From NCBI GenBank assembly GCA_032718475.1, contig JAUCBJ010006683.1, positions 1 through 64,000 on the forward strand: a DNA stretch of 64,000 nucleotides, written 5' to 3'. Each line of letters opens with the position of its first letter. The first letter of the stretch is position 1. This document shows positions 428-25,572 of this stretch, one piece after another. This stretch comes from Nemertoderma westbladi (Eukaryota > Animalia > Xenacoelomorpha). The position numbers and the translations under genes were made by a program. The notes under the pieces were generated by a model. The model did not search any database, was not told the origin of the DNA, and was given only the letters and a program-made list of their open reading frames with translations.

Positions 428-3400
428 ACTGGTCCTATATAGGTGTACTGATTCTAACTGCTGTATGATGGTCTCCATATAGAAGTACTGGTTCTGACTG
501 CTTTATGATGGACTCCATATAGGAGTACTGGTTCTATCTGCTGTATGATGGACTCCATATAGGAAGGAGTACTGGTTCTAAATGCTGTATGATGGACTCC
601 ATATAGGAGTACTGGTTCTAACTTATGATTGATGGACTGACTCCATATAGAAGTACTGGTTCTAACTTCTGATTGATGGACTCCATATAGGAGTACTGGT
701 TCTAACTGCTGTATGATGGACTCCATATAGGAGTACTGGTTCTAACTGCTGTATGATGGAATCCATATAGGAATACTGGTTCCTGGTTCTATCTGCTGAT
801 TGATGCTCCATATAGGAGTACTGGTTCTAACTGCTGTATGATGGACTCCATATAGGAGTACTGGTTCTAACAGCTGTATGATGGACTCCATATAGGAGTA
901 TTGATTCTAACTGCTGTATGATGGACTCCATAAAGGAGTACTAGTTCTAACTTCTGATTGATGGAATCCATATAGGAGTACTGGTTCTAACTGCTGTATG
1001 ATTGACTCCATATAGGAGTACTGGTTCTAACTTCTTATTGATGGACTCCATATAGGAGTACTGGTTCTAACTGCTGTATGATGGACTCCATATAGGAGTA
1101 TTGGTTCTAAACTGCTGTATGATGGACTCCATATAGGAGTACTGGTTCTAACTGCTGTATGATGGACTCCATATAGGAGTACTGGTTCTAACAGCTGTAT
1201 GATGGACTCCATATAGGAGTATTGATTCTAACTGCTGTGGACTCCATATAGGAGTACTGGTTCTAACTTCTGATCGATGGACTCCATATAGGAGTACTGG
1301 TTCTAACTGCTGTATGATGGACTCCATATAGGAGTACTGGTTCTAACTGCTGTATGATGGACTCCATATAGGAGTACTGGTTCTAACTTCTGATCTATGG
1401 ACTCCATATAGGAGTACTGGTTCTAACTGCTGTATGATGGACTCCATAAGGAGTACTGGTTCTAACTGCCGTATGATGGACTCCATATAGGAGTACTGTT
1501 TCTAACTGCTGTATGATGGACTCCATATAGGAGTACTGATTCTAACTGCTGTATGATGGACTCCATATAGGAGTACTGGTTCTAACTGCTGTATGATGGA
1601 CTCCATATAGGAGTACTGGTTCTAACTGCTGATTGATGAACTCCATATAGGAGTACTGATTCTAACTGCTGTATGATGGACTCCATATAGGAATACTGGT
1701 TCTAACTGCTGTGTGATAGACTCCATATAGGAGTACTGGTTCTAACTGCTGTATGATGGACTCCACATAGGAATACTAGTTCTAACTGCTGTATGATGGA
1801 CTCCATATAGGAGTACTGATTCTAACTGCTGTATGATGGACTCCATATAGGAGTACTGGTTCTAACTTCTGATTGATGGACTCCATATAGGAGGACTGGT
1901 TCTAACTGCTGTATGATGGACTCCATATAGGAGTTCTAACTGCTGTATGATGGACTCCATATAGGAGTTCTAACTGCTGTATGATGGACTCCATATAGGA
2001 GTACTAGTTCTAACTTTTGTATGATGGACTCCATATAGGAGTACTGATTCTAACTGCTGTATGATGGACTCCATATAGGAGTACTGGTTCTAACTTCTGA
2101 TTGATGGACTCCATATAGGAGTACTGGTTCTAACTGATGTATGATGGACTCCAAATTGGAGTACTGGTTCTAACTGCTGTATGATGGACTCCATATAGGA
2201 GTACTGGTTCTAACTTTTGTATGATGGACTCCATATAGGAGTACTGATTCTAACTGATGTATGATGGACTCCATATAGGAGTACTGGTTCTAACTGATGT
2301 ATGATGGACTCCATATAGGAGTACTGGTTCTAACTTCTGATTGATGGAATCCATATAGCAGTACTGGTTCTAACTTCTGATTGATGGACTCCATATAGGA
2401 GTACTGGTTCTAACTGCTGTATGATGGACTCCATATAGGAGTTCTAACTGCTGTATGATGGACTCCATATAGGAGTACTGGTTCTAACTGATGTATGATG
2501 GACTCCATATAGGAGTACTGATTCTAACTGCTGTATGATGGACTCCATATAGGAAGGAGTACTGGTTCTAACTTCTGATTGATGGACTCCATAAAGGAGT
2601 ACTGGTTTTAACTTCTGATTGATGGACTCCATATAGGAGTACTGGTCCTATATAGGTGTACTGATTCTAACTGCTGTATGATGGTCTCCATATAGAAGTA
2701 CTGGTTCTGACTGCTTTCTGATGGACTCCATATAGGAGTACTGGTTCTATCTGCTGTATGATGGACTCCATATAGGAAGGAGTACTGGTTCTAACTGCTG
2801 TATGATGGACTCCATATAGGAGTACTGGTTCTAACTTATGATTGATGGACTGACTCCATATAGGAGTACTGGTTCTAACTTCTGATTGATGGACTCCATA
2901 TAGGAGTACTGGTTCTAACTGCTGTATGATGGACTCCATATAGGAGTACTGGTTCTAACTGCTGTATGATGGAATCCATATAGGAATACTGGTTCCTGGT
3001 TCTATCTGCTGATTGATGCTCCATATAGGAGTACTGGTTCTAACTGCTGTATGATGGACTCCATATAGGAGTACTGGTTCTAACAGCTGTATGATGGACT
3101 CCATATAGGAGTATTGATTCTAACTGCTGTGGACTCCATATAGGAGTACTGGTTCTAACTGCTGTATGATGGACTCCATATAGGAGTACTGATTCTAACT
3201 GCTGTATGATGGACTCCATATAGGAGTACTGGTTCTAACTGCTGTATGATGGACTCCATATAGGAGTACTGGTTCTAACAGCTGTATGATGGACTCCATA
3301 TAGGAGTATTGATTCTAACTGCTGTGGACTCCATATAGGAGTACTGGTTCTAACTTCTGATCGATGGACTCCATATAGGAGTATTGATTCTAACTGCTGT

Positions 3401-6400
3401 GGACTCCATATAGGAGTACTGGTTCTAACTTCTGATCGATGGACTCCATATAGGAGTACTGGTTCTAACAGCTGTATGATGGACTCCATATAGGAGTATT
3501 GATTCTAACTGCTGTGGACTCCATATAGGAGTACTGGTTCTAACTGCTGTATGATGGACTCCATATAGGAGTACTGGTTCTAACAGCTGTATGATGGACT
3601 CCATATAGGAGTACTGGTTCTAACTGCTGTATGATGGACTCCATATAGGAGTACTGGTTCTAACAGCTGTATGATGGACTCCATATAGGAGTATTGATTC
3701 TAACTGCTGTGGACTCCATATAGGAGTACTGGTTCTAACTTCTGATCGATGGACTCCATATAGGAGTACTGGTTCTAACTGCTGTATGATGGACTCCATA
3801 TAGGAGTACTGGTTCTAACTGCTGTATGATGGACTCCATATAGGAGTACTGGTTCTAACTGCTGTATGATGGACTCCATATAGGAGTACTGATTCTAACT
3901 GCTGTATGATGGACTCCATATAGGAGTACTGGTTCTAACTGCTGTATGATGGACTCCATATAGGAGTACTGGTTCTAACTGCTGATTGATGAACTCCATA
4001 TCGGAGTACTGATTCTAACTGCTGTATGATGGACTCCATATAGGAGTACTGGTTCTAACTGATGTATGATGGACTCCATATAGGAGTACTGGTTCTAACT
4101 GCTGTATGATGGACTCCATATAGGAGTACTGATTCTAACTGCTGTATGATGGACTCCATATAGGAGTTCTAACTGCTGTATGATTGACTCCATATAGGAG
4201 TACTGGTTCTAACTTTTGTATGATGGACTCCATATAGGAGTACTGATTCTAACTGCTGTATGATGGACTCCATATAGGAGTACTGGTTCTAACTTCTGAT
4301 TGATGGACTCCATAAAGGAGTACTAGTTCTAACTTCTGATTGATGGACTCCATATAGGAGTACTGGTTCTAACTGCTGTATGATGGACTCCATATAGGAG
4401 TACTGGTTCTAACTTCTGATTGATGGAATCCATATAGGAGTACTGGTTCTAACTTCTGATTGATGGACTCCATAAAGGAGTACTAGTTCTAACTTCTGAT
4501 TGATGGACTCCATATAGGAGTACTGGTTCTAACTGCTGTATGATGGACTCCATAGGAGTACTGGTTCTAACTTCTGATTGATGGTCTCCATATAGAAGTA
4601 CTGGTTCTGACTGCTGTATGATGGACTCCATATAGGAGTAATGGTTCTATCTGCTGTATGATGGACTCCATATAGGAAGGAGTACTGGTTCTAACTGCTG
4701 TATGATGGACTCAATATAGGAGTACTGGTTCTAACTTATGATTGATGGACTGACTCCATATAGGAGTACTGGTTCTAACTTCTGATTGATGGACTCCATA
4801 TAGGAGTACTGGTTCTAACTGCTGTATGATGGACTCCATATAGGAGTACTGGTTCTAACTGCTGTATGATGGAATCCATATAGGAATACTGGTTCCTGGT
4901 TCTATCTGCTGATTGATGCTCCATATAGGAGTACTGGTTCTAACTGCTGTATGATGGACTCCATATAGGAGTACTGGTTCTAACAGCTGAATGATGGACT
5001 CCATATAGGAGTACTGGCTCTAACTGCTGTATGATGGACTCCATATAGGAGTACTGGTTCTAACAGCTGTATGATGGACTCCATATAGGAGTATTGATTC
5101 TAACTGCTGTGGACTCCATATAGGAGTACTGGTTCTAACTTCTGATCGATGGACTCCATATAGGAATACTGGTTCTAACTGCTGTATGATGGACTCCATA
5201 TAGGAGTACTGGTTCTAACTGCTGTATGATGGACTCCATATAGGAGTACTGGTTCTAACTGATGTATGATGGACTCCACATAGGAGTACTGGTTCTAACT
5301 TTTGTATGATGGACTCCATATAGGAGTACTGATTCTAACTGCTGTATGATGGACTCCATATATGAGTACTGGTTCTAACTTCTGATTGATGGACTCCATA
5401 TAGGAAGGAGTACTGATTCTAACTGCTGTATGATGGACTCCATATAGGAGTACTGGTTCTAACTTCTGATTGATGGACTCCATATAGGAGTACTGGTTCT
5501 AACTTCTCATTGATGGACTCCATATAGGAGTACTGGTTCTAACTGCTGTATGATGGACTCCATATAGGAGTACTGGTTCTAACTTCTGATTGATGGACTC
5601 CATAAAGGAATACTAGTTCTAACTTCTGCTTGATGGACTCCATATAGGAGTACTGGTTCTAACTGCTGTATGATGGACTCCATATAGGAGTACTGGTTCT
5701 AACTTCTTATTGATGGAATCCATATAGGAGTACTGGTTCTAACTTTTGTATGATGGACTCCATATAGGAGTACTGATTCTAACTGCTGTATGATGGACTC
5801 CATATAGGAGTACTGGTTCTAACTGATGTATGATGGACTCCACATAGGAGTACTGGTTCTAACTTTTGTATGATGGACTCCATATAGGAGTACTGATTCT
5901 AACTGCTGTATGATGGACTCCATATAGGAGTACTGGTTCTAACTTCTGATTGATGGACTCCATAAAGGAATACTAGTTCTAACTTCTGCTTGATGGACTC
6001 CATATAGGAGTACTGGTTCTAACTGCTGTATGATGGACTCCATATAGGAGTACTGGTTCTAACTTCTTATTGATGGAATCCATATAGGAGTACTGGTTCT
6101 AACTTCTGATTGATGGACTCCATAAAGGAGTACTGATTCTAACTGCTGTATGATGGACTCCATATAGGAGTACTGGTTCTAACTGCTGTATGATGGACTC
6201 CATATAGGAGTACTGGTTTTAACTTCTGATTGATGGACTCCATAAAGGAATACTAGTTCTAACTTCTGCTTGATGGACTCCATATAGGAGTACTGGTTCT
6301 AACTGCTGTATGATGGACTCCATATAGGAGTACTGGTTCTAACTTCTTATTGATGGAATCCATATAGGAGTACTGGTTCTAACTTTTGTATGATGGACTC

Positions 6401-9400
6401 CATATAGGAGTACTGATTCTAACTGCTGTATGATGGACTCCATATAGGAGTACTGGTTCTAACTGATGTATGATGGACTCCACATAGGAGTACTGGTTCT
6501 AACTTTTGTATGATGGACTCCATATAGGAGTACTGATTCTAACTGCTGTATGATGGACTCCATATAGGAGTACTGGTTCTAACTTCTGATTGATGGACTC
6601 CATAAAGGAATACTAGTTCTAACTTCTGCTTGATGGACTCCATATAGGAGTACTGGTTCTAACTGCTGTATGATGGACTCCATATAGGAGTACTGGTTCT
6701 AACTTCTTATTGATGGAATCCATATAGGAGTACTGGTTCTAACTTCTGATTGATGGACTCCATAAAGGAGTACTAGTTCTAACTTCTGATTGATGGACTC
6801 CATATAGGAGTACTGGTTCTAACTGCTGTATGATGGACTCCATATAGGAGTATTGGTTCTAACTGCTGTATGATGGACTCCATAAAGGAGTACTAGTTCT
6901 AACTTCTGATTGATGGACTCCATATAGGAGTACTGGTTCTAACTGCTGTATGATGGACTCCATATAGGAGTATTGGTTCTAACTGCTGTATGATTGACTC
7001 CATATAGGAGTATTGGTTCTAACTGCTGTATGATGGACTTCATAAAGCAGTACTAGATCTAACTTCTGATTTAAGGACTCCATAAAGGAATACTAGTTCA
7101 AACTTCTGATTGATGGACTCCATATAGGAGTACTGGTTCTAACTGCTGTATGATGGACTCCATATAGGAGTACTGGTTCTAACTTCTTATTGATGGAATC
7201 CATATAGGAGTACTGGTTCTAACTTCTGATTGATGGACTCCATAAAGGAGTACTAGTTCTAACTTCTGATTGATGGACTCCATATAGGAGTACTGGTTCT
7301 AACTGCTGTATGATGGACTCCATATAGGAGTATTGGTTCTAACTGCTGTATGATGGACTCCATATAGGAGTACTGGTTCTAACTGCTGTATGATGGACTC
7401 CATATAGGAGTACTGGTTCTAACAGCTGTATGATGGACTCCATATAGGAGTATTGATTCTAACTGCTGTGGACTCCATATAGGAGTACTGGTCTAACTTC
7501 TGATCGATGGACTCCATATAGGAGTACTGGTTCTAACTGCTGTATGATGGACTCCATAGGAGTACTGGTTCTAACTTCTGATGGATGGTCTCCATATAGA
7601 AGTACTGGTTCTGACTGCTGTATGATGGACTCAATATAGGAGTAATGGTTCTATCTGCTGTATGATGGACTCCATATAGGAAGGAGTACTGGTTCTAACT
7701 GCTGTATGATGGACTCAATATAGGAGTACTGGTTCTAACTTATGATTGATGGACTGACTCCATATAGGAGTACTGGTTCTAACTTCTGATTGATGGACTC
7801 CATATAGGAGTACTGGTTCTAACTGCTGTATGATGGACTCCATATAGGAGTACTGGTTCTAACTGCTGTATGATGGAATCCATATAGGAATACTGGTTCC
7901 TGGTTCTATCTGCTGATTGATGCTCCATATAGGAATACTGGTTCTAACTGCTGTATGATGGACTCCATATAGGAGTACTGGTTCTAACAGCTGTATGATG
8001 GACTCCATATAGGAGTACTGGCTCTAACTGCTGTATGATGGACTCCATATAGGAGTACTGGTTCTAACAGCTGTATGATGGACTCCATATAGGAGTATTG
8101 ATTCTAACTGCTGTGGACTCCATATAGGAGTACTGGTTCTAACTTCTGATCGATGGACTCCATATAGGAATACTGGTTCTAACTGCTGTATGATGGACTC
8201 CATATAGGAGTACTGGTTCTAACTGCTGTATGATGGACTCCATATAGGAGTACTGGTTCTAACTGCTGTATGATGGACTCCATATAGGAGTACTGGTTCT
8301 AACTGATGTATGATGGACTCCACATAGGAGTACTGGTTCTAACTTTTGTATGATGGACTCCATATAGGAGTACTGATTCTAACTGCTGTATGATGGACTC
8401 CATATATGAGTACTGGTTCTAACTTCTGATTGATGGACTCCATATAGGAAGGAGTACTGATTCTAACTGCTGTATGATGGACTCCATATAGGAGTACTGG
8501 TTCTAACTGATGTATGATGGACTCCACATAGGAGTACTGGTTCTAACTTTTGTATGATGGACTCCATATAGGAGTACTGATTCTAACTGCTGTATGATGG
8601 ACTCCATATATGAGTACTGGTTCTAACTTCTGATTGATGGACTCCATATAGGAAGGAGTACTGGTTCTAACTGCTGTATGATGGACTCCATATAGGAGTA
8701 CTGGTTCTAACTGATGTATGATGGACTCCACATAGGAGTACTGGTTCTAACTTTTGTATGATGGACTCCATATAGGAGTACTGATTCTAACTGCTGTATG
8801 ATGGACTCCATATAGGAGTACTGGTTCTAACTTCTGATTGATGGACTCCATAAAGGAATACTAGTTCTAACTTCTGCTTGATGGACTCCATATAGGAGTA
8901 CTGGTTCTAACTGCTGTATGATGGACTCCATATAGGAGTACTGGTTCTAACTTCTTATTGATGGAATCCATATAGGAGTACTGGTTCTAACTTCTGATTG
9001 ATGGACTCCATAAAGGAGTACTAGTTCTAACTTCTGATTGATGGACTCCATATAGGAGTACTGGTTCTAACTGCTGTATGATGGACTCCATATAGGAGTA
9101 TTGGTTCTAACTGCTGTATGATGGACTCCATAAAGGAGTACTAGTTCTAACTTCTGATTGATGGACTCCATATAGGAGTACTGGTTCTAACTGCTGTATG
9201 ATGGACTCCATATAGGAGTATTGGTTCTAACTGCTGTATGATGGACTCCATATAGGAGTATTGGTTCTAACTGCTGTATGATGGACTTCATAAAGCAGTA
9301 CTAGATCTAACTTCTGATTGATGGACTCCATAAAGGAATACTAGTTCAAACTTCTGATTGATGGACTCCATATAGGAGTACTGGTTCTAACTGCTGTATG

Positions 9401-12400
9401 ATGGACTCCATATAGGAGTACTGGTTCTAACTTCTTATTGATGGAATCCATATAGGAGTACTGGTTCTAACTTCTGATTGATGGACTCCATAAAGGAGTA
9501 CTAGTTCTAACTTCTGATTGATGGACTCCATATAGGAGTACTGGTTCTAACTGCTGTATGATGGACTCCATATAGGAGTATTGGTTCTAACTGCTGTATG
9601 ATGGACTCCATATAGGAGTACTGGTTCTAACTGCTGTATGATGGACTCCATATAGGAGTACTGGTTCTAACAGCTGTATGATGGACTCCATATAGGAGTA
9701 TTGATTCTAACTGCTGTGGACTCCATATAGGAGTACTGGTCTAACTTCTGATCGATGGACTCCATATAGGAGTACTGGTTCTAACTGCTGTATGATGGAC
9801 TCCATAGGAGTAATGGTTCTATCTGCTGTATGATGGACTCCATATAGGAAGGAGTACTGGTTCTAACTGCTGTATGATGGACTCAATATAGGAGTACTGG
9901 TTCTAACTTATGATTGATGGACTGACTCCATATAGGAGTACTGGTTCTAACTTCTGATTGATGGACTCCATATAGGAGTACTGGTTCTAACTGCTGTATG
10001 ATGGACTCCATATAGGAGTACTGGTTCTAACTGCTGTATGATGGAATCCATATAGGAATACTGGTTCCTGGTTCTATCTGCTGATTGATGCTCCATATAG
10101 GAATACTGGTTCTAACTGCTGTATGATGGACTCCATATAGGAGTACTGGTTCTAACAGCTGTATGATGGACTCCATATAGGAGTACTGGCTCTAACTGCT
10201 GTATGATGGACTCCATATAGGAGTACTGGTTCTAACAGCTGTATGATGGACTCCATATAGGAGTATTGATTCTAACTGCTGTTGACTCCATATAGGAGTA
10301 CTGGTTCTAACTTCTGATCGATGGACTCCATATAGGAATACTGGTTCTAACTGCTGTATGATGGACTCCATATAGGAGTACTGGTTCTAACTGCTGTATG
10401 ATGGACTCCATATAGGAGTACTGGTTCTAACTGATGTATGATGGACTCCACATAGGAGTACTGGTTCTAACTTTTGTATGATGGACTCCATATAGGAGTA
10501 CTGATTCTAACTGCTGTATGATGGACTCCATATATGAGTACTGGTTCTAACTTCTGATTGATGGACTCCATATAGGAAGGAGTACTGATTCTAACTGCTG
10601 TATGATGGACTCCATATAGGAGTAGTGGTTCTAACTTCTGATTGATGGACTCCATAGAAGTACTGGTTCTAACTGATGTATGATGGACTCCACATAGGAG
10701 TACTGGTTCTAACTTTTGTATGATGGACTCCATATAGGAGTACTGATTCTAACTGCTGTATGATGGACTCCATATAGGAGTACTGGTTCTAACTTCTGAT
10801 TGATGGACTCCATAAAGGAATACTAGTTCTAACTTCTGATTGATGGACTCCATATAGGAGTATTGGTTCTAACTGCTGTATGATGGACTCCATAAAGGAG
10901 TACTAGTTCTAACTTCTGATTGATGGACTCCATATAGGAGTACTGGTTCTAACTGCTGTATGATGGACTCCATATAGGAGTATTGGTTCTAACTGCTGTA
11001 TGATGGACTCCATATAGGAGTATTGGTTCTAACTGCTGTATGATGGACTTCATAAAGGAGTACTAGTTCTAACTTCTGATTGATGGACTCCATATAGGAG
11101 TATTGGTTCTAACTGCTGTATGATGGACTCCATAAAGGAGTACTAGTTCTAACTTCTGATTGATGGACTCCATATAGGAGTACTGGTTCTAACTGCTGTA
11201 TGATGGACTCCATATAGGAGTATTGGTTCTAACTGCTGTATGATGGACTCCATATAGGAGTATTGGTTCTAACTGCTGTATGATGGACTTCATAAAGGAG
11301 TACTAGTTCTAACTTCTGATTGATGGACTCCATAAAGGAATACTAGTTCTAACTTCTGATTGATGGACTCCATATAGGAGTACTGGTTCTAACTGCTGTA
11401 TGATGGACTCCATATAGGAGTACTGGTTCTAACTTCTTATTGATGGAATCCATATAGGAGTACTGGTTCTAACTTCTGATTGATGGACTCCATAAAGGAG
11501 TACTAGTTCTAACTTCTGATTGATGGAATCCATATAGGAGTACTGGTTCTAACTGCTGTATGATGGACTCCATATAGGAGTATTGGTTCTAACTGCTGTA
11601 TGATGGACTCCATATAGGAGTACTGGTTCTAACTGCTGTATGATGGACTCCATATAGGAGTACTGGTTCTAACAGCTGTATGATGGACTCCATATAGGAG
11701 TATTGATTCTAACTGCTGTGGACTCCATATAGGAGTACTGGTTCTAACTTCTGATCGATGGACTCCATATAGGAGTACTGGTTCTAACTGCTGTATGATG
11801 GACTCCATATAGGAGTACTGGTTCTAACTGCTGTATGATGGACTCCATATAGGAGTACTGGTTCTAACTTCTGATCTATGGACTCCATATAGGAGTACTG
11901 GTTCTAACTGCTGTATGATGGACTCCATAAGGAGTACTGGTTCTAACTGCCGTATGATGGACTCCATATAGGAGTACTGGTTCTAACTGCTGTATGATGG
12001 ACTCCATATAGGTGTACTGATTCTAACTGCTGTATGATGGACTCCATATAGGAGTACTGGTTCTAACTGCTGTATGATGGACTCCATATAGGAGTACTGG
12101 TTCTAACTGCTGATTGATGAACTCCATATAGGAGTACTGATTCTAACTGCTGTATGATGGACTCCATATAGGAGTACTGGTTCTAACTGCTGTGTGATGG
12201 ACTCCATATAGGAGTACTGGTTCTAACTGCTGTATGATGGACTCCACATAGGAGTACTAGTTCTAACTGCTGTATGATGGACTCCATATAGGAGTACTGA
12301 TTCTAACTGCTGTATGATGGACTCCATATAGGAGTACTGGTTCTAACTGCTGTATGATGGACTCCATATAGGAGTTCTAACTGCTGTATGATGGACTCCA

Positions 12401-12981
12401 TATAGGAGTACTAGTTCTAACTTTTGTATGATGGACTCCATATAGGAGTACTGATTCTAACTGCTGTATGATGGACTCCATATAGGAGTACTGGTTCTAA
12501 CTTCTGATTGATGGACTCCATATAGGAGTACTGGTTCTAACTGATGCATGATGGACTCCAAATAGGAGTACTGGTTCTAACTGCTGTATGATGGACTCCA
12601 TATAGGAGTACTGGTTCTAACTTCTGTATGATGGACTCCATATTGGAGTACTGGTTCTAACTTCTGATTGATGGACTCCATATAGGAGTACTGGTTCTAA
12701 CTGCTGTATGATGGACTCCATCTAGGAGTTCTAACTGCTGTATGATGGACTCCATATAGGAGTACTGGTTCTAACTTTTGTATGATGGACTCCATATAGG
12801 AGTACTGATTCTAACTGATGTATGATGGACTCCATATAGGAGTACTGGTTCTAACTTCTGATTGATGGAATCCATATAGGAGTACTGGTTTTAACTTCTG
12901 ATTGATGGACTCCATATAGGAGAACTGGTCCTATATAGGTGTACTGATTCTAACTACTGTATGATGACTCCATATAGGAGT
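428..12981 (+). repeat. 40-bp tandem satellite array, left block (about 310 monomers)
   Basis: Head-to-tail copies of CTGCTGTATGATGGACTCCATATAGGAGTACTGGTTCTAA, plus a second major variant with CTTCTGATTGATGG and many small indel variants. Confidence 0.98.
12977..12981 (+). repeat. Left target-site duplication GGAGT
   Basis: Identical to 25568-25572. Removing the element and one TSD copy restores a continuous satellite monomer. Confidence 0.95.
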
Positions 12982-13520
12982 TGTTAGCTTATTCAATCCC
13001 GCTAACCCAAACCCATAAAGTAGGGCGTTAAGCAATATTGGGGGCCACGAAATTGGATAATCAATCACTCGTGTCACCCCAACAAAATGGAAAGGAGAAA
13101 CACACAATGAGGGTCAGGGGCCAAACCCCTAACAGAGAGAGAACAGGTGGAGTGAACGGGAACACTCCAAAGGGCGCCAACAAGGGTATCAACCAATCAG
13201 AGGGGGAAAGGCATCGATTAGGTAGAGTAACAAGGCCAACCCGTGCAATATAGCCAGTTGGCAGTAATCATTTTACTCAGTTATCTCAGTATCATATTGG
13301 TGCTAGTTAGGTTAGTTAGTTTAGCTAGGGAAGGACCGGGACTTTAATTACCGTTTCCCGCCTTCCGTGTACGACATCATATCACCTATATCTATATCTA
13401 TATCTTATACCTAAACATTATACGCGACAAACAACGTAAACCCTTTCACTCTTCACACACGGCGGGGACGCGTGAATTAACAAACCGGATAAATCGGGAT
13501 CCTCCCTGGATCCCGTCACA
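12982..13520 (+). repeat. 5' LTR (539 bp)
   Basis: Starts TGTTAGC and ends GTCACA. Matches 25028-25567 with 5 substitutions and 1 G indel by manual alignment. Confidence 0.97.
13191..13282 (+). promoter_or_regulatory. Putative LTR Pol II promoter: CCAAT box, weak TATA-like element, Inr
   Basis: AACCAATCAG at 13191-13200, AATATA at 13247-13252 and Inr-like TCAGTT at 13277-13282, about 30 nt after the TATA-like site. Motif spacing only. Confidence 0.45.
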
Positions 13521-13572
13521 GTAATTAAACTCAGAGCTGCCGCCCTAGCTAGCTAATCACCAAGCGAGATAA
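13521..13572 (+). other. Non-canonical primer-binding region (no TGG tRNA complement) that is complementary to the LTR
   Basis: The sequence after the LTR is GTAATTAAACTC. GTAATTAAA is the reverse complement of LTR 13343-13351, and further complementary blocks follow (see findings). Confidence 0.55.
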
Positions 13573-13796
13573 ATCAGTCGGGAGAGACGACGCCGACACG
13601 GACCCCGGACGAAGAGCTAACGATCCGCGAGGCCGCAACCAGACGGTACAGGCCCACAACGCCGGACCCATCGGTAACGGGTCATCCGGCAGTTCAGGAT
13701 GAGGGGGTCCGTCTGGAACCCGAGGTCGAGCCGAGAGAAGGAGAGAGCGAGACGGAGAGAGAAGGAGACGAGTCGACACGGGACGTAGGTCGACGT

Positions 13797-14018
13797 ACCG
13801 ACGTCGCCGGCCAGCCACAGGCCGAGGGCGACGAGCGGCCCACCGAAACGGCGACGGTGGGGCCGACGGTACGACGCCGGACCCGGAGAGATGGAGGAGA
13901 TGTTGGTACTGATGTCGCCGGCCAGCCACGGGCCGAGGGCGACGAACGGCCCACCGGAACAGCGACGGTGGGGCCGGCGGTACGACGTCGGACCCGGAGG
14001 GACGGAGGAGAGGTCGGC
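13797..14018 (+). repeat. Two tandem 111-bp (37-aa) repeats in the gag 5' region
   Basis: TDVAGQPQAEGDERPTETATVGPTVRRRTRRDGGDVG followed by TDVAGQPRAEGDERPTGTATVGPAVRRRTRRDGGEVG. Confidence 0.9.
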
Positions 14019-15409
14019 GACGAGGACGTCGGGGTTTCTGAACGACTTCGACGGGCCTACATCACGACCCGGAGACTATTAGAGGAGGCCAGAGGAGGGG
14101 CGACGATAGACAAGGTAAAACTAAAGAAAGGACTAGGTGAGTCGAATAGACATTTTAACTATTTAATGCAATTCGGACAGAGAGAAATGGCCGAAGAGAG
14201 AGCGAGAGGGGTTGCCGAGGAACTGTATGACTTATGGCGGTGTAGGGGTATGGAACCTAGCGTAGTGTACGTAGGGCCATACTTAGTCGATGGCCGGGGA
14301 GTAAAATTAGTGGGTTGGAGGGGACCTGAAGGGGGCGAATCCGAGGTTAACCCCGAGGATTCGGCCTCGTCGGTCGGAGGAAGTTCCGAGAGGCGGGGGA
14401 AAGTTAGTAGGATGGGAAGGCGGAGGGAATTCGTCACAACCGATAAGTCTGCTACATCCTCCGTAAAAGAAAGACGGGTGAGAGAGATAAATGCCACGTA
14501 CCATCTCGACCTGATAGAGCAAGGTCAAAGGGAAATGGATAAACGGTTAGAGGAGTGGAGAACGCGGCTAGAGAGGGAAACGGCATTGATTAGAGAAACC
14601 GGAGAGAGGGCCGAAAGGGCCTTGAAAAGCCTTAGGGAGTGTGAGGAAATAGAGAGGAGGGAACAAGAAAAGCGTGAGGCGGAACGTAAGGAACGTGTAG
14701 CGAGAGAGGAAAACTAGCGCAAAGAACGGGAGGTGAGAGAGGAGGGTGAACGCAGAGAGCGTGAGGCGAGACGAAGGGAGGGAGCTAGAAGAAAGTTGGA
14801 ATTGGCCGAGCAAAGCAAACGGGAGTGTAGGGAGAGAATGGCAAGGGAGGAGTGTGAGCGAAAAGAATTAGAGAGACGCCAAAGTGAGCTTATGGAGCAT
14901 AAGATTAGACGCACGCGCGAGCTGCAACTGGCGCGGGCGGGGGCATCTGAAAGCGGGGCCGACTCGAGTATTTTCGAGGAGCCGGGGGCCGTGGATACAT
15001 TTATTAATACCCCACTTACAGGGACCGCACGACAGACCCAAAACTGGTGTGACCGTACGGGCGGGGGGGGGGGGGGGGTAATAACAATAATGCTACAGTA
15101 GACGTCGTTAATATTAATAGTACCGTATGGGATAACTCTAACCAAACCTTTATTGCAGCAAATAATACTTTACCTAGTAGCAGTAATTTAAATTTAAATA
15201 CAAATAATAATTTCGATTTGAACGTGCAAAATAATCCGAATAATAATTTAAATTTAGAAAATAATAATAATTCAAATAATTTAAATAATGATCCAAGCCC
15301 GAATTTACAAAATAATTCAAATGATTTTGTTTCAAACGAACAAATTAATTCCGTTTCCAATATGGGTGCTATTAACGTAAACACGTCGGGCGTGTATGGC
15401 CAGGCAGAC

Positions 15410-15650
15410 GGGGGCCTGGTAGCCCGTATAATTGGTAGGCCGGAAGTGGCGGGGTTGAGCCAACCCAGAGAGGGCCTGGTAGGCCACGTAGTTGGTAGGC
15501 AGGGAGTGGCTGGGTTGGGTAGACCCAGTGAGGGCCTGGTAGGCCACGTAGTTGGTAGGCAGGGAGTGGCTGGGTCGGGTAGACCCAGCGAGGGCCTGGT
15601 AGGCCACGTAGTTGGTAGGCAGGGAGTAGAGGGCCTGGTAGGCCACGCAA
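15410..15650 (+). repeat. 60-bp (20-aa) tandem repeat in gag, about 4 copies
   Basis: GAGGGCCTGGTAGGCCACGTAGTTGGTAGGCAGGGAGTGG recurs every 60 bp, encoding EGLVGHVVGRQGVAGxGRPS. Confidence 0.9.
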
Positions 15651-18037
15651 TAGCAGAGGGAGAGGCGGGGGTGAATAGACCCGACCGTGGTAGGGTTGAT
15701 GTGTCGACTAGAGAGGGATATAGTAGCGGGGTGAGGGATAGCGAAGTTAGATGTGGCGAGTGGGGGGGGGGGGGCTACAGGGGCCCCACAACAGCGAGTT
15801 AGCGGCAAAAAGGGGGGGGCAGAGAGTGTCCCACAGACGTCAATGGATAATGCGCGGGCCGAAATAGGTAAACCGCAACACCCGGCGACGGAGAGTAATA
15901 GGGGGATTGTGAGTATCCCCAGCGGCGTGCGACCAAGCAGAGAGATACAGGTTGACGTCGTGAGAGGGCGGACGAAGCGTCGAGCCCGATCAGAAGAGGG
16001 AAGAAGAACAGTGGGGTTTAACCGGGAGGTCGACGAGAGATCTCACGAGCGGGAATACTCCACTGAAAGGAGAAGAAGAGAAGACAGTAGTAGAAGCATC
16101 GCCGCGAACGATAGAAGAGCGAGGACGGATAGCGAGCCGTCGGTAGTCGAGATGAGAACGGAGAGTCAGTGGGGTCGGACTCCGGGAGATTGCCGTCGCC
16201 CCGGAGAGATGCGACCTGGTGAGGCGTATTACGCGCCAATGGAGGGGTACGCGATGTACCGGTACGAAGACGAGAACAGTAGAGGGGGGGGGGGGGGGTC
16301 GAAGAGAAACTTTCCGACCGAATACACCTACCGACCGAGAATACGGTAGCCGCAGGGAGGACTGTTCGAGAAGAATAAACTTCGATCCCGAGCGACACAT
16401 GCGACTGTAGGACATACTGTAGGCCTTACTGCACATACCATAGGCCATGCTGACAGAGGCAATGTAGGCGATAGGATAGCGCGGACAACGGGATTAAACC
16501 CAGAAGTCGCGGAATACATACCGGCGGGTAGGCCAGGAGCTGATAGGCCTATACTGGTACCAGTACAGCAGTATGACTACAGCATGCAGGGACATAACAT
16601 ATACCCAGGGGAGGGGGGAATTATTGCGGATAGGTGTATGGGCCCCAACATATTAACATCAACCCCAGTACCAAACATACCGGTGGGGGGGGGGGGGGGG
16701 GCAGGGTGACATTCCCCCATCACAATATCAACAATATACCCCGATAGGAGCAAGAACAACGAGTCCCTTGGATGAAAATAGATCGTGTGATACAGAAATA
16801 TGGAGGGGGCCGCTACCCCCAATGATATACCCAAGTCAAAGAAAGTCAAGGAATAGGACGGACGGGCCGCATCAGACAGGAGAAACCATACAGCATCCAT
16901 CGAACCCATTGGAAGCGCAGGCGATGGGGATGGCCACGTTGATCGATGCGTTGAAAACGAGGATCGAGTTACCACCCGTGGAACCATTCAAATTCGATGG
17001 GAGTAGGCCGGAAGAATATGTACAGTTTCGGCGCATGTATAGTAACGAAATACTAACAAAGAACTTGACGCAGGCGGAGTGCCTAAAGTATCTGCAAGTA
17101 TACACGGGAGGCCCAGCATACGATATCGTGAGGCAATATCAAGGCATAGAGGGCGGTTTCACGACAGCATGGCGGGCACTGGACAGGGAATACGGGCACC
17201 CGGCCAAGATCACCAGACAGACACTGAGAGGCATAACATCGGGTGGCCTACAGGATAATCCCGTTAGCATTAAGACGTTCGCTAACAAAGTCGAAAAGGC
17301 GCTAATCGTGCTGAAGACGCTAGACGCGCCATCCGAGCTCAACGCGTCCAATAACATCACCACGATAGCGCAGGCACTACCGAACTGGCTGCGCAACAAG
17401 TGGAGGAAAATCGCTTTCTCCACTCGAGACAAGAAGGGTGTGGAACCGGGTTTAGAAGAAATGTCAAGCTTCTTAAACTACGAGGCTGAACTAATAACTG
17501 ACCCAGTCTATAGCGAAGATAGCCTGGGAAAGGGACCGAAGACGGATTACCATAGACTGAAACCAGAGCACAATACATCAAACGCATTACCGAGGCTCAG
17601 GCAATCATTGCCATATGCAGCGACGCAGGGGACTACGAGTCCACAGCTAGCCGAAGATAAGACCACACCATGGAACGGACAGGGGAACAATAACAACACG
17701 AATAAATATAACCCCAGTACGTCCAGTAGGCCGAATCCAAACAATAAGAATAGTAGGGACTTTGGTACAAACGCAGCTGCGATACGCGATGCACTGTATA
17801 AGGAGGGCTACGACCCAAAGAGCAAATGCCAGCTACACGCAAATGCGCTTCATCAAACCATGAACTGCAGGTACTGGCAGGCGCTACCTAGGCAAGATCA
17901 GATAGATTATGCGTTGAGCAATAAGATCTGCTCGCGATGTGTGATGAGTGGACATAGAGCTAGGGAATGCAAGGAGAAGCTGGTAAAGTTCGGTCAAAGG
18001 AGAGGCCAAACGATGGCAACGAAGAGGAGAGCGAACG

Positions 18038-21000
18038 GTGTTACATGGAGTAGTACCCGTGCGAGTGATTGGAGAAGGCAATCGATCAGTAACAACATTA
18101 ATGCTGGTTGATAGTGGAGCTGCCTTCACATTAGTCGAGGAATGGGTGGCCGAAGAGATAGGATTGAGAACGAGGCCAAGCAGAATGGCGGTAACAACCA
18201 TCTCTAGCAAAGATGAGATCCTGGAGATGAGAACCGGACGGTGCGCAATTGCAGCAGTGGCACCGGGATGTGACTATGGGGCAACCATCGACCCCATCCA
18301 AGTGATAGAGTCAATTAATATCAATGCCAGGCGGCCAACCAACATCGAGGTCGAGCAATATAAATTCCTGGACGACATTGACTTCTCAATCCCAGATATG
18401 GACGTTAGGAAGGTATCCATCATAGTAGGAATGGACTGCCCAACAGCCCACGAAAGAATGCAAACGGTCTTCGGCGAAGACAAGCAGTGTGACCCGGTGG
18501 CGATATTAAAACCATTCGGGTGGACGCTGAGTGGCCCAATCAAGAGCAAGATACCATTTAGGATGTCGGAGACATCAGGATGCATGTTCGCGGGAACAAT
18601 GCAAGAAATGGGTGATGAGGGAGCAGAGGAGCAGCTTAAAAGACTGCTCAGGCAAGATTTCGAGGGACTGAAAGAGACCGGGGTCGGGACCTCGGTAGAA
18701 GACAAGCAGGCTTTACAAAGTGTGGAGGAATCGATGACATGCGATGAGGGGCGGTATACTATAGGAATGGTATGGAAATTACCGAAAATACCACTGCCCG
18801 ATAATAGAGGGATGGTACTCACGAGACTCCGCAAGCTGAAACAAACACTAAAACGGAGCCCCGAAAAGAATGAGTACATCCACAGAACGATTAAGAAGTA
18901 CGTCGAGAAAGGGTGGGCCGTGGAGTTACCGGTCGACGAACTGAACACGGACAGGACATATTACCTGCCACTCCACGTGGCTTTAGACCCAAAGAAAGGT
19001 AAACTGCGGATGGTAGTTGACGCATCAGCAAAGACCAACGGAAAATGCTTAAACGACTATCTGTTAGAAGGTCCAAACATATACAACTCGGGCATAGAGG
19101 TCCTACTTAGATTTAGGAATGGGAAACACGCCTTCACGTGTGACATAGAAGGCATGTTCAACCAAGTCCGCGTAACGGAGGAAGATAGCGACAGTCAACG
19201 CTTCTTATGGTATAACGGCGAGGAAGAACCGTCGATAATACCGGCATATAAGATGGTAGTACAAAACATGGGAGCCAAGTCGTCTTCATTTACGACGACT
19301 ATGGCAGTGAGAGATACAGTGAAGGGGAAGGAAGATAGATACAGCACTAGGGCCGTCGATATGATTCGACGCGGCTTCTACGTAGACGACGGAATGGAGT
19401 CTGGAAATACGGTTAAGGAGATACTGGACACAGGGCGCGAGGTTCGCGACATCCTAAAAGGATCCGGCTTTAACCTGACCAAATTCCAATCCAGTTCGGA
19501 AGAATTTATCAAGGCGATAGAGGACAAGAGACCAGAATCGACCATGGATAATCCCACAACAGCCAAAGGGCAGGACATGGCGAACAAGAGGACAGAATCT
19601 CAACAGAAGGCACTGGGAATTGTATGGAACAGAGAGACAGACGAACTGAAGTATCAGCTGAGCCAGGAGGGCGCAGACATCCACACGAAGAGGGGCTATG
19701 TGTCGTACATAGCAAGGATATACGATCCCCTAGGTCTAGCATCCCCATTATTAGTCACGGGGAAACAGATACTCAAAAGAGTATACAAATTGAAGGATGA
19801 GTGGGACGTAGAGGTACCAGAGGAAATCAAGAAACAGTGGAGTAAGTGGACAGGAGACTTGGAGAAGATGGGAACATACAACATGCCACGAGTGTATTTC
19901 CCGGATGGGAACATGACGAATCTGGACCTACACATGTTCTCCGATGCGTCGTTGGAGGCGTACGGAGCGGCACTCTATTTAGTACAACGAGAGGGGGCTC
20001 ACAAGCCCAGACTGGCCTTTAGCAAAGCAAAGTCAACGCCGCCAGATTCAGTATCAGTTCCCAAGTTAGAATTGACAGCTGCGAGACTAGGAGTTAGAGC
20101 CACAGCCTACCTAGTGGATACTATTCCCAACATAGTGGAGACACACTACTGGACGGACTCCATGGTAGTGCTTGGTTGGCTACATAACGAAAGGACGAGA
20201 TACCCAATATTCGTCGCGAATAGAGTGGACGAAATAAGGGCGACCACAGAACTGGAAAGGTGGCACTACTGCCCAACGGACGAGAACCCAGCGGACTTGT
20301 TGTCGAGGGGCGTGGTACGCCACACTTTCTTGAAGAAGGAAGTATTGTGGCAACATGGGCCACAATTTCTGAGCGACAAGGAGGCCTGGCCGCCGATGAG
20401 AAAGGTGGACCCGGACTCAGGAGAGGTAGTGTCAGAAGGAGAAGAGGGAGATTCAGAGGGAGAAGAGATATACTCCCAGATGGTGAGGGAGATTAGGGAC
20501 GTGCAACCAAAATCAGAAGAACTGTGCGATAACCCGACAGACAAACTCCTCAGCTACAGCTCTAGTTGGTATAAGACCAAGAAATTAGTGGCGTACTGGA
20601 GAGCCTTCGGGAATTTCCTCGCGGGAGTTGGCAAAGACAAGAAGATCAGAACATCCATAGATCTGGAAGGAGCGGCCAAGGCAGTCATCCGCTATGAACA
20701 ATGGAAGAACTATGGCGACGAGGTGGAACGCGTCGGTAACCAACAGCACCTCCGACGGGACAGCGAGCTGATCACGCTGTCGCCACAACTTAATGACGAC
20801 AGGATTCTAGTAATGAATTCTAGGGTGGGATACAACAACAGCATAATCATACCGCCGAAACCCATCATCATTCCAACAGGATCGCCAATAGTTCACCAGA
20901 TTATCTGGGACTCCCATAAGTCGATATTGCACGGGGGCACCAACCGAACTCTCACGGAGATAAGGAGGACCTATTGGGTCAAGCAGCTGAGGAAGAAGGT

Positions 21001-22024
21001 AAAAGCGGTAGTGGGGCAGTGCCAGACCTGCCAACGAGCGAAGAGGGAGAGAGCCATACAAGAGATGGCACCACTACCAGCGAGTAGAGTAAGACAGCAC
21101 GACCCGCCATTTACACATTGCGGTGTGGACATGTTCGGGCCGATAAAGATCAATGTGATGCGGCACACGGAGAAACGCTACGGTATTATCTTCGTATGTA
21201 ACAACACACGGGCAGTAGGGATAGAACTCGCCCAAGATGCAACCGCATCAGCATTCATTAATGCTTTAGAAAGGTTTAGAGACCGCAAAGGTGGGACGAT
21301 CGCAGTGATATACAGCGACAACGGCACCAATTTTGTGGGGGCAGAGAATGAGATGGCAGAGGCCTTGGACATCATGGAAGGGGAGGAAGTCAGGGCGGCC
21401 ATGAGACGATGACAAGTAAAGTGGGAGAGAAGGACGCCGTATGCACCACATACACTAGGATGCGTCGAGAGACTGGTGGGCAGTTCAAAGCGTCTAATGA
21501 CGAAGCTAATGAACACCCACATGGTCACTGAGGACGTCTTAAGGACAGTGCTTGCGAAGTGCGAGGGGATCATTAATAGCAGACCGCTATATCCGGAGAA
21601 TGATGACCCTGAGTCATTAGATGTGCTGACACCCAGCCATTTTCTAATGGAAAGGCCAGCGACCATCGACATGCGGGGTGTAGATCCAGACGACATACAC
21701 TCCCGCCAAAGTTGGAAAGTCGCTAAAGCAATAAGCGCAGAGTATTGGAGGAGGTGGGTAGAAGAATACCTACCCACGCTCCATAAAAGAAGCAAGTAGA
21801 GGAAGCCGAATAGGGAGTTAAGAGTAGGAGATCTCGTAATCGTTACGGATGATACTATCATCAACAACCAGTGGCGGTTGGCGAGAGTTGTAGGCACTTA
21901 CTCCGATGAGGACGGAAGAGTCCGATCGGTAGAAGTGCGGATAGGTGGTAAGATAGGAGCGAAGGACAGAAAAACCTACAGGAGAGCTGTAGGGAAATGC
22001 TGTCTGTTAGAAGGGGCACCTTAG
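18038..22024 (+). pseudogene. pol: BEL/Pao pol polyprotein: aspartic protease, RT, RNase H, integrase and DUF5641-like C-terminus; two in-frame stops
   Basis: PR LVDSG (about 18110); RT YVDDG (about 19379); RH LHMFSDAS, ELTAA, WTDS; IN H-H-C-C zinc finger, GVDMFGP, SDNG, ERLV. The frame continues past TGA 21410-21412 and TAG 21797-21799 (replacing W in RSKW) through LRVGDLV..W.LARV..DGRVRSVEV to TAG 22022-22024. Confidence 0.95.
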
Positions 22025-22139
22025 TGGAGTTAGAGAAGAGTTTAGTCGTCCAAGCTTTGGACTGAGGGGGGTGGGATTGAGGGCGAGACGCCCTTCCCAC
22101 ACATAAAAAATAGAAAATAAAAATAAAATAATAGTACAT

Positions 22140-22590
22140 AGTAGGTACGCAGTTAGTAGGCAGAAGTTAGTCAGTAAGAAGGTACGTAGTACCTAGAGTT
22201 AGTTAGTTAGTTAGGAGGTACGTAGTACCTAGAGTTAGTTAGTTAGTTAGGAGGTACGTAGTACCGTTAGTTAGGAGAGAGTTAGAGGGTACGTAGTACC
22301 GTGAGTTAGAGGATACGTAGTACCGTTAGTTAGAGAGTTAGAGGGTACGTAGTACCGATAGTTAGAGAAGAGTTAGAGGGTACGTAGTACCGTTAGTTAG
22401 AGAAGAGTTAGAGGGTACGTAGTACCGTTAGTTAGAGAGAGAGTAAGAGTTAGAGGGTACGTAGTGCCGTTAGTTAGAGAGAGAGTAAGAGTTAGAGGGT
22501 ACGTAGTACCGTTAGTTAGAGAGAGAATAAGAGTTAGAGGGTACGTAGTACCGTTAGTTAGAGAGAGAGTAAGAGGTAGAAGGGTATATA
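22140..22590 (+). repeat. Internal tandem array, about 11 units of 25-45 bp, core GGTACGTAGTACC with GTTAGTTAG/GA spacers
   Basis: Cores at about 22181, 22217, 22253, 22288, 22312, 22344, 22379, 22414, 22456, 22498 and 22540. The core is an inverted repeat GGTAC-GTA-GTACC. Confidence 0.92.
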
Positions 22591-22968
22591 ATATAGATAT
22601 TAATTAGCAGTTAGTAGCGAGAGGGGGGCATATGAGTACAGTTGGATAGATCGTGTAGGCCGCGCGACATATACTGCTGTACTGCACAGGCCCACAGAGT
22701 AGGCCAGAATGTGGATTAGGAGATAGAATAATCCATAGGCATTAGCAAGTAATAGGACAGTAGGATTAAAATCAAAATAAAATTAGAATAAGAATAGGGC
22801 TAAGAAGGGGAACAAATTATAGTAACAGTAGTAAGAATAGGCAATAACTCAGAAATTCAGAAAGAGATAGGCCATCGAACTGAACTTAAACCACCTAAAC
22901 CCATCACTCATCACGTTTGCGCCTTGGCAAGGCACCACCTACGGGTGAGCGATCGGGCAGAGTTCGAG

Positions 22969-24316
22969 ATGGCAGGCAAACTTGTGAGAGAGGAGAGAAG
23001 CAGAGGAGAGGGAGGAGGAAGCTAGGGCGCAGAGCTACGGCTTCGAGGAACAAGCAGCCTTAGACTAACTTCGTTGGGCTTCGTCAGGGAGTTTGGGGGA
23101 GTCTCTAGGGAAAGAACTGGGGTGGACGGTGGGATCACCGAAACAGTCGACGTCGGGATTGCAAGCGATGCCCATACCAGCGGGCGCCGAGGGCGACCAA
23201 CCGCAAAGGAGGCTAGGGGAGCTTGAGGAATGGAGAGTTACGGGCAAGAACCAAGGCGGGAAGGGACATAGTGGGTCCACCAGGATACCGGGGTTGGAAC
23301 TCTGTGAGAGGAGGACGAGGACGACGACGGGTTCGGAGAGGATAGGCCACTCAAACACGGACTGGGTTGGCGGGAGGGTGGTGACGGCCAGTGGGGCGAG
23401 GGCCTTCTGGGACAGATCCGGCAAGCGGACCTGAGTGCACGAGGAGCCGGCGATGAATTTCGCGGGGAGCACTATCAGGTTGGGCGAGCAACCGGGGACG
23501 GCACCACGGGTAGTATTCGGGGAGACGATGCCCGAGAGGGGCGGAGAGATCGACGTTCGATCTCTCGAACGTTCGACTGCGACTCCACAGACCGCGGAGA
23601 TCGCTTGGGACGAAAGACGACGTGGGGCGGGAGACATTGGTACTCGGTTGCGACTACTGTGGGAGACAGACCCACCAGGAAAGGAGCTGTTTGTACCGGT
23701 TCCAAAAGGGAACCTTTTGTCTCTACTGCCGCGAGTCGAGCCACAGGATGGGGGCGTGTCCACGGTTGCATAACCGATGTCCGAAGTGCAACTTTTGGGG
23801 ACACTACGGACGCCAGTGCGACTGGATGGACGACAAAGAGAAGTTCAGAAGACGCGCCAGTGCATGAAGGCCCAGGAGTTCAAGTGGGGTTTCTTCCTTA
23901 TCAATCAGGAGGCTCACATGGAAATCATAAAGCGGAGGCTACCGTTTACCTATCAAGAGGTAGCAACGGCGGCGTCGTATGCCGGAGTGATGAATACACA
24001 AAGATATTTGGACAGGTGGACGCCACAGAACCGAGGGGAGTTTAGGGATTTCTTGGCGGAGCACATGCCGCGAGCAATGAAGATGATCCTATGGGACGCC
24101 ACCAGGGGGAGACAACAGGGCCACTCGGAGGGGCCACCGGCAAAGCGATATCGGGCACTAATAACACCAGCGCCCAAGGAGCCAGCAACCGGAATCAGTA
24201 GGGAGGTGGCGGCGAAAGTCCGAAGGCAGAAAGCGGATCCCAGAGGAGCGGTAGTAACCAAGAAACGACCCAGGGAAGAGGATGCCAGAGGGAACTACCT
24301 CCAGAGGGACAAATAG
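22969..24316 (+). pseudogene. Degraded accessory ORF downstream of pol encoding a triple CCHC zinc-knuckle protein
   Basis: Three exact C-x2-C-x4-H-x4-C motifs in 23649-23819. Flanking same-strand ORFs 23093-23434, 23435-23773 and 23777-24316 share one frame. ATG in GAGATGG context at 22969; AATAAA at 24422. Boundaries are inferred. Confidence 0.65.
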
Positions 24317-24989
24317 GTTCCCAGGGCCGGGGGAGAGAAGCTGAGACTTGGACGTGGTATGCCTGGAAGGCGCCGCGTGGGACGTACAAACTATTAAGTA
24401 CAAATTAAACTGATGCAAAATAATAAATAAGTGCAATTATATGTACGTACGTAGTAATCAGTAGTTTAGCAGTAAAATATATGTTCGAAGTAAGTACTAT
24501 AGTCATACAACCTTTCTCAATTAGCTACTGGGACTGGGGGGCTAACTGACTATGGCACTAGGGATGAGACGCCAGACGATTTCACACTTCTTGGGTGCGA
24601 CGGCACAAGAGGGGGGGGGGGGGGTGAGACTCGTCAGAAGGGATAGAGTAGTCAAAGAGAGACGGAGCAACAATGCGAAGTACGGAGAGAGTGCGGATGC
24701 AATTCTAGTGTGGGGAGGGAGGAATAAGAGGCTGAGTGAGGGACGAGGAGGTCCGAGGGTATGCGAGAGTTAGGGTGAGAATGGAGAAGAGATAGGGCGA
24801 AAGTGTTGGGAAAACAAAAGTCGCGTGAGAGGTGAGCGCGATCGGCCCGACAAGGGACGCTAGGCATACAGGGCAGCGTTATCATACCCATAGGGAGCAG
24901 CCTGGAAAGCCGGCTCCGAGAGAAAAGAATTCCACCCCACACCCGATACTAGATCGGGATCCAGCGGGATTGTAGCGCACTTTAGGTGG

Positions 24990-25018
24990 ATGCTATCTTC
25001 TCACCGGGAAGATAGCAT
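24990..25018 (+). other. Perfect 11-bp stem-loop immediately 5' of the PPT
   Basis: ATGCTATCTTC-TCACCGG-GAAGATAGCAT. Confidence 0.85.
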
Positions 25019-25027
25019 GGGGGGGAG
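25019..25027 (+). other. Polypurine tract (plus-strand primer)
   Basis: GGGGGGGAG directly abutting the TG of the 3' LTR. Confidence 0.9.
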
Positions 25028-25567
25028 TGTTAGCTTATTCAATCCCGCTAACCCAAACCCATAAAGTAGGGCGTTAAGCAATATTGGGGGCCACGAAATT
25101 GGATAATCAATCACTCGTGTCACCCCAACAAAATGGGAAGGAGAAACACACAATGAGGGTCAGGGGTCAAACCCCTAACAGAGAGAGAACAGGTGGAGTG
25201 AACGGGAACACTCCAAAGGGTGCCAACAAGGGTATCAACCAATCAGAGGGGGGAAAGGCATCGATTAGGTAGAGTAACAAGGCCAACCCGTGCAATATAG
25301 CCAGTTGGCAGTAATCATTTTACTCAGTTATCTCAGTATCATATTGGTGCTAGTTAGGTTAGTTAGTTTAGCTAGGGAAGGACCGGGACTTTAATTACCG
25401 TTTCCCGCCTCCCGTGTACGACATCATATCACCTATATCTATATCTATATCTTATACCTAAACATTATACGCGACAAACAACGTAAACCCTTTCAATCTT
25501 CACACACGGCGGGGACGCGTGAATTAACAAACCGGATAAATCGGGATCCTCCCTGGATCCCGTCACA
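25028..25567 (+). repeat. 3' LTR (540 bp)
   Basis: Direct repeat of 12982-13520; ends TCACA and is followed by the TSD. Confidence 0.97.
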
Positions 25568-25572
25568 GGAGT
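25568..25572 (+). repeat. Right target-site duplication GGAGT
   Basis: Identical to 12977-12981. Confidence 0.95.

Follow-up and report, generated by a model that had tools for sequence, protein, structure and literature searches.

A BEL/Pao retrotransposon of Nemertoderma westbladi quite probably primes synthesis of its minus strand with its own RNA and not with a host tRNA, and self-priming becomes a distinctly probable reading once a short and a long version of the primer are counted together. The explanation that best covers the observations as a whole, and in our view a probable one, is a self-primed BEL/Pao element whose primer is a clamped piece from the 5' end of the RNA. That this piece is intron-less, clamped and about 73 nt long is a proposal on which the sequence leaves us evenly divided; the length follows from the predicted start of the RNA at A13279. 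Self-priming as such is a known mechanism. What is likely to be new is its occurrence in BEL/Pao, the long clamped primer of the present element and the splice-built primers of its relatives.

An LTR retrotransposon in satellite DNA

The window, that is, the whole stretch of DNA analysed (positions 1-64,000 of the forward strand of contig JAUCBJ010006683.1, assembly GCA_032718475.1), is a 40-bp satellite broken by a single LTR retrotransposon of 12,586 bp (12982-25567). Both flanks, 1-12976 and 25573-64000, are essentially that one satellite, and the insertion is clean, with a 5-bp target-site duplication: the satellite-derived GGAGT at 12977-12981 is found again at 25568-25572. The LTRs, coding regions and pairing blocks described below lie on the forward strand. 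Alignment of the 5' LTR (12982-13520; 539 bp, TGT...ACA) with the 3' LTR (25028-25567; 540 bp) reveals five substitutions and one gap, so the insertion is young. A polypurine tract (25019-25027) adjoins the 3' LTR, and an inverted repeat spotted by eye lies immediately 5' of the tract, at 24992-25018. LTRs of the TG...CA type, a target duplication and a polypurine tract are all features expected of BEL/Pao elements (Belpaoviridae).

The coding content points in the same direction. Pfam and motif searches identify a frame for the gag core (16657-18111), which bears DUF1759 and Cys/His knuckles, and a pol frame (17987-22024) with protease, reverse transcriptase (RT; YVDD), RNase H and integrase in the BEL/Pao order (PR-RT-RH-IN), followed by a DUF5641 tail. 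Pol matches Peptidase_A17 (E 8.8e-41, Pfam), and the Pfam families found in the element include DUF1759, Peptidase_A17, an integrase zinc finger and DUF5641; PF05380 is present in all of the 120 best protein matches listed. In Pfam terms, pol is not of the Ty3/gypsy chromovirus type that marks the Tf1/sushi group. Judged by its proteins, then, the element is BEL/Pao, though it falls outside the ICTV description on two points, primer site and length. The window copy is damaged: pol stops in frame at 21410-21412 and 21797-21799, and the 5' coding region is broken as well.

Two further regions make up much of the remaining length. Between the leader and the gag core (13557-16709), the coding sequence, some 3 kb of it, is acidic, Asn-rich and coiled-coil-like, carries repeats and is spread over several broken frames; this low-complexity region gave no Pfam match in the five frames scanned. 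The other is a 3-kb extra region at the 3' side (22025-25018). It includes an array (22165-22625) of tandem units, 36-42 bp long, in which GTTAGTTAG is abundant; the same word fills R at 13306-13324. A frame in this region (23514-23867) has three CCHC-like zinc knuckles outside gag; it matches zf-CCHC_4 weakly (E 0.03) and is possibly an extra or relic nucleocapsid-like gene.

The family to which the element belongs is abundant in organism A. Its closest RT-RNase H identity, the best among the matches of three protein searches, is 40%. In a quick-method, unrooted tree of 72 rows (the window element, 50 of 80 relative loci and 21 database proteins, without named subgroup references) the element sits on a very long branch (3.16); because of this branch, we do not assign it to a named BEL/Pao subgroup (Suzu, Sinbad, BEL, Pao, Tas, Dan, Flow, Sailor). 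Searches of viral and metagenome contigs yielded no match to the exact LTR-end patterns, and the viral contigs searched contained no BEL relatives.

The primer site, its complement in the LTR and the fold of the leader

A13520 is the last base of the 5' LTR, as shown by the agreement of the two LTRs through GTCACA and by GGAGT flanking both 12982 and 25567. Directly after it comes GTAATTAAAC, which bears out the initial annotation's claim that no TGG follows the LTR. The predicted primer-binding site, GTAATTAAA (13521-13529), is the exact complement, at offset 0, of nine nucleotides of the LTR at 13343-13351 (block 1, the core of the predicted self-primer), so that C13351, the putative 3' end of the primer, does face G13521, the first base past the LTR. 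A complement to the element's own LTR 0-5 nt after the LTR is also the mark of Tf1/sushi elements. Three more blocks, all exact reverse complements in nested, antiparallel order as had been claimed, link the LTR to the leader (arms within 13543-13572). Block 2, with its G-U extension, forms the main clamp (13315-13330, pairing with 13543-13557, of which 13543-13551 is the exact arm); block 3 (13297-13302) complements 13558-13563; and block 4, the outer clamp (13281-13287), complements 13566-13572. Block 2 keeps the register of block 1 to within 1 nt; block 3 departs from that register by 12 nt and block 4 by 19 nt.

Could this arrangement be an accident, or be left over from a short inverted duplication, and have nothing to do with priming? 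The blocks are AT-rich and of low complexity, they were chosen in the initial annotation after being seen, and the R segment pairs better with one other segment of the element than with the leader (-51.0 versus -47.2 kcal/mol). A complement of at least 9 nt at 0-5 nt past the LTR arises in 72 of 5000 dinucleotide-shuffled LTRs, shuffling the leader instead of the LTR gives 7/300, and the outer duplex, taken alone, is modest (44/1000 and 39/1000 shuffles). Against an accident stands the combination: in none of the 5000 shuffled LTRs was a 9-mer anchored at the LTR end joined by another, nested one lying no more than 15 nt out of register, and three had a 7-mer in that position. Moreover, the arrangement recurs with different letters in the relatives described below, and an LTR element needs a primer at this place, yet there is no TGG. 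We regard chance as very improbable.

Two other sources of a primer were considered and rejected. Caenorhabditis elegans Cer7 has a self-encoded tRNA-like primer; in the present element ARAGORN and Rfam returned no tRNA or RNA family match, and the 9-nt primer site has no exact complement in the element beyond the two LTRs. A primer built by splicing was dismissed for the window element, the dinucleotide before the core being AC, not AG; a search of spliced forms of its LTR found nothing longer than the contiguous 9 nt.

How much RNA lies 5' of the core depends on where transcription begins. TATA-like elements and initiators (Inr) have a recognised consensus. The TCAGTT reported at 13277-13282 is indeed there, with A13279 as the predicted start, and a TATA-like element (13249-13253) precedes this A by 30 nt; they are the sole such motifs in the LTR, and a pair spaced 28-32 nt apart turns up in 71/5000 shuffled LTRs. 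From these motifs we infer a start of the RNA at about A13279; the core, 64 nt further downstream, would occupy about +65 to +73. The primer of about 70 nt put forward in the initial annotation thus stands or falls, as to its length, with this predicted start. Were the RNA to begin at about 13340-13343 instead, the element would have a short, Tf1-like self-primer, and blocks 2-4 would pair from the 3' LTR, circularising the RNA for strand transfer. In an RNA begun at 13343 the core helix does enter the minimum-energy fold (mean probability 0.41), and in the available excerpts of PMC7175516 Tf1 is described as using its first 11 bases. The motifs indicate 13279, however, the outer pairing stops at the Inr and the predicted start, and the relatives too pair 5' of their cores; a short primer therefore seems to us quite unlikely.

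For the RNA that would start at 13279, folding upholds part of what had been claimed. None of 100 shuffles of the region folds as well as the native sequence (z -3.88), but the predicted pairs differ from the claimed set, and since the z value spans local hairpins and a competing helix we do not count it in favour of priming. At equilibrium only blocks 2 and 4 form, mostly at 0.95-1.0 (block 2 about 1, its extension 0.84, block 4 about 0.95, or some 0.45 if folding is carried on to 13800); for blocks 1 and 3 the values stay near 0, a local hairpin being predicted in place of block 3. In the minimum-energy fold the partner of the core is a U5 site (13475-13488), where 13475-13480 pairs with 13344-13349 (probability 0.81) and 13485-13488 with 13336-13339 (1.0), leaving the primer site mostly unpaired (13523-13535). 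When the 5' end is set at 13279 the core helix has probability 0, and the price of imposing it is 5.5 kcal/mol at 37 C (about 6 at 10-25 C); four helices formed together, as first proposed, are thus not predicted. Even in the cut 5' fragment the core favours U5 over the primer site. The forced core helix would create a junction with an R-U5 stem that begins at the predicted cut (13352-13362 with 13461-13470) and an 8-bp U5 hairpin shortly before the LTR end (13495-13515, probability 0.99). The window core helix (-5.0 kcal/mol) is the weakest of those compared, the 16 relatives ranging from -8.8 to -16.9, and in four intron-less relatives the same folding test gives the core helix 0.22-0.99.

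Data from family copies take the form of collapsed, unphased contigs that exclude copies less than 80% alike and in which the LTR is covered about five times as deeply as the leader. Among 40 substitutions listed at 4% of depth or above, none falls in 13495-13590, which includes the primer site, or in 13322-13330. One lies in the core: A13347G, at 39% of depth in run X1 and 51% in X3, would turn a pair of the core helix into G-U; no matching change at 13525 is listed at 4% or above in these unphased data. The covariation expected of a conserved helix is accordingly not seen as a compensatory change, and contigs of this kind neither demonstrate nor exclude it. Variation is found in the U5 competitor site and in the leader past the primer site: indels at 13474, 13481, 13482, 13530 and 13533 are among those listed, and in both runs one form of the leader diverges at 13548. 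Six of the joints listed, from three runs, leave the window sequence at 13527-13529 and rejoin it at 13581-13617, a weak hint that the 7-9 nt next to the LTR are retained in diverged copies. A further run, X6, from another organism and RNA by guess only, has no cover over 13228-13719 and is not used as evidence.

These observations bear on another reading, in which the leader structure is real, with a role in packaging, in dimerisation or in the control of translation, and the primer is supplied from outside, for instance by a tRNA fragment. The minimum-energy fold just described, with 13523-13535 free and 13344-13349 held by U5, is what such a reading would expect, and, judged by eye and in unphased data, inserted letters that follow 13474 in some of the family could give G13347 a partner in U5. 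In half-tRNA-primed elements (copia, Osser, Bianca) the site complements a tRNA cut in its anticodon stem. tRNA anticodon loops carry U33 and a purine at position 37; the primer end implied here, if placed on an anticodon arm, breaks this rule in the registers tried by hand, and the element itself contains no tRNA or Rfam match. An outside primer also leaves unexplained why the sites of relatives match their own spliced junctions and share a GT start. Primers made of half tRNAs are known in Ty1/copia, according to the available part of PMC6317226. On balance we think an outside primer unlikely, though a better candidate than either a short self-primer or chance.

Own-LTR complements and introns in BEL/Pao relatives

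Stronger than the geometry of the window element are the complements found in other BEL/Pao elements. Relatives were taken as the best 80 of 552 confirmed loci, at 30-38% identity; terminal inverted repeats did not yield LTR ends for most of them. In 14 of the 80 both repeat copies run past the repeat end, and the eight that end in CA were kept and the other six dropped (L059 and L039 were left out of the resolved set), which gives LTR ends fixed without reference to pairing. Two of the eight (L013, L052) have TGG within 3 nt. The remaining six (L015, L016, L033, L037, L050, L066) have a site starting with GT, 0-4 nt past the LTR, that complements 11-14 nt of the element's own LTR, a result matched by 0-1 of 300 shuffles each; the own-LTR complement noted in the window element thus recurs in six of the eight relatives with fixed ends. 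In five of the six the complement is finished only across a GT-AG intron in the LTR, and the relatives' introns measure 77-222 nt. Such a site matches the spliced form of its own LTR, which points to an RNA partner and makes little sense unless that RNA is the element's own. Two contigs, L050 (1-214, 6769-7265) and L015 (145-326, 6694-7103), each hold an intron-bearing and an intron-less LTR, the junction marking the point at which the primer complement becomes whole.

Ten more relatives came from a scan of candidate ends that was done partly by eye and is hence biased; their matches are 10-15 nt long, seven spliced and three contiguous. Over 17 elements (16 relatives and the window element) sites match their own LTRs for 9-15 nt, against a mean of 4.45 for cross pairs (n=306). 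Cross pairs reach 9 nt in 13 of the 306 cases: the six that reach 11 are among three families with one common site, and five others pit A-rich sites against the LTR of TGG-type L052 and match for 9-10 nt, so matches of that length can be accidental.

Pairing outside the core also recurs. For the 17 elements the second helix averages -3.95 kcal/mol with the own LTR and -2.31 in cross pairs (p 0.0001 in a permutation that ignores relatedness), that of the window element being only -2.1 kcal/mol. This recurrence makes it look as if an RNA end 5' of the core were a trait of the group. A long outer clamp as a general feature was rejected: over 64 nt it reaches p ≤0.05 in 4/16 relatives, with the window element at p 0.06 in the same run. 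The motif A[AT]TAAA lies 3' of the primer end in 13 of the 16 relatives, as strand transfer needs, and of the remaining three one is truncated at that place; no A[AT]TAAA is present in the window LTR. Sites of the TGG type (L013, L049, L052) occupy two places on a quick, unrooted tree of the relatives, and the primer type may have switched more than once.

A model for self-priming and its place among known systems

One could envision the following course of events. The RNA would begin at about A13279, and blocks 2 and 4 would clamp its first 50 nt or so to the leader. Gag or RT would then move 13343-13351 from its U5 partner to the primer site, and the element's RNase H, the motif of which is present, would cut after C13351, as Tf1 does. 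The resulting piece of about 73 nt would prime copying from 13520 back to 13352; strand transfer would follow via R of the 3' LTR, from which the new LTRs would also obtain 13279-13351. The long clamp would offset the weakness of a core helix unable to hold by itself. For this model speak the geometry of the site and, with more weight, the own-LTR complements of the relatives, with which the window element has in common the GT-starting site and the AC primer end; against it counts that U5 outcompetes the core helix. The clamp is common to both states of the core, so the data fit a switch as well as a leader structure unrelated to priming.

It is tempting to speculate further, and we do so tentatively, that much of BEL/Pao is not tRNA-primed, many lineages having a splice-built self-primer and the lineage of the window element a clamped primer of about 73 nt with a two-state switch, off with the core on U5 and on with the core on the primer site, that would time cleavage and the start of reverse transcription. 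The long branch of the window element counts against a claim of shared ancestry with the self-complementary relatives. If correct, the model would make BEL/Pao the third large LTR superfamily with self-priming, present there in two forms or more (splice-built in the relatives, long and clamped here) and beside TGG-type elements on one tree, and LTR finders that demand a tRNA site would miss or misjudge such elements. The phosphodiester bond 13351/13352 and the RNA start at 13279 are predictions that can be mapped directly.

No report of self-priming in BEL/Pao was found in the literature searched, a search whose reach did not extend to most subscription journals, Repbase Reports or GyDB. Older descriptions of Suzu, Catch or Cer elements may bear on novelty. 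A word search of the main text of two BEL/Pao papers (PMC3118150, PMC554778) found no mention of PBS, tRNA or priming, and the available portions of PMC6934838, PMC3601003, PMC8220671 and PMC12451622 contain none of BEL/Pao self-priming.

The ICTV profile of the Belpaoviridae calls replication of these elements poorly understood and describes host-tRNA priming from an 18-nt site for tRNA-Arg or tRNA-Gly and a length of 4.2-10 kb (PMC8742986). The window element resembles the Belpaoviridae and Semotivirus of that profile in its LTRs, polypurine tract, gag followed by PR-RT-RH-IN, overlapping gag and pol frames and BEL/Pao Pfam families, and differs in having no tRNA site and in its 12,586 bp (PMC8742986). 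With Tf1 and Tf2 of Schizosaccharomyces pombe, Tj1 and the Tf1/sushi group of Ty3/gypsy it has in common, going by the available excerpts of PMC7175516 and PMC4600332, the lack of a tRNA site and a site next to the 5' LTR, complementary to the 5' part of its own RNA; as in Tf1, cleavage would place a 3' end opposite the first base past the LTR. Both sites are AT-rich, that of Tf1 beginning ATAAC, and the Tf1 primer is copied into the cDNA end (both from the available part of PMC11042837), a step that would keep primer and site in step. Tf1, however, uses bases 1-11 in those excerpts, whereas the present core consists of 9 bp at about +65 to +73 with outer helices behind it; in addition, the proteins here are of BEL/Pao and not Ty3/gypsy type, and a competing U5 partner is predicted. 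Evidence of the same level stands behind the TAR (Houba, Osr-1; Ty1/copia) and Tcn1 plant lineages, for which, in the accessible part of PMC6317226, self-priming was predicted from complementarity of LTR and primer site alone. These belong to other superfamilies, the survey that defined them required at least 10 bp, of which the 9-bp window core falls short, and that part of the text describes no splice-built primer. The BEL/Pao relatives (L015, L016, L033, L037, L050, L066 and others) share with the window element the GT site, the AC primer end, a second helix and 32-38% RT-RNase H identity. Their cores are 10-15 nt long and mostly split by an intron, and most have A[AT]TAAA past the primer end; the window element, on a long branch outside them, has a 9-nt core with no intron and a longer in-register clamp.
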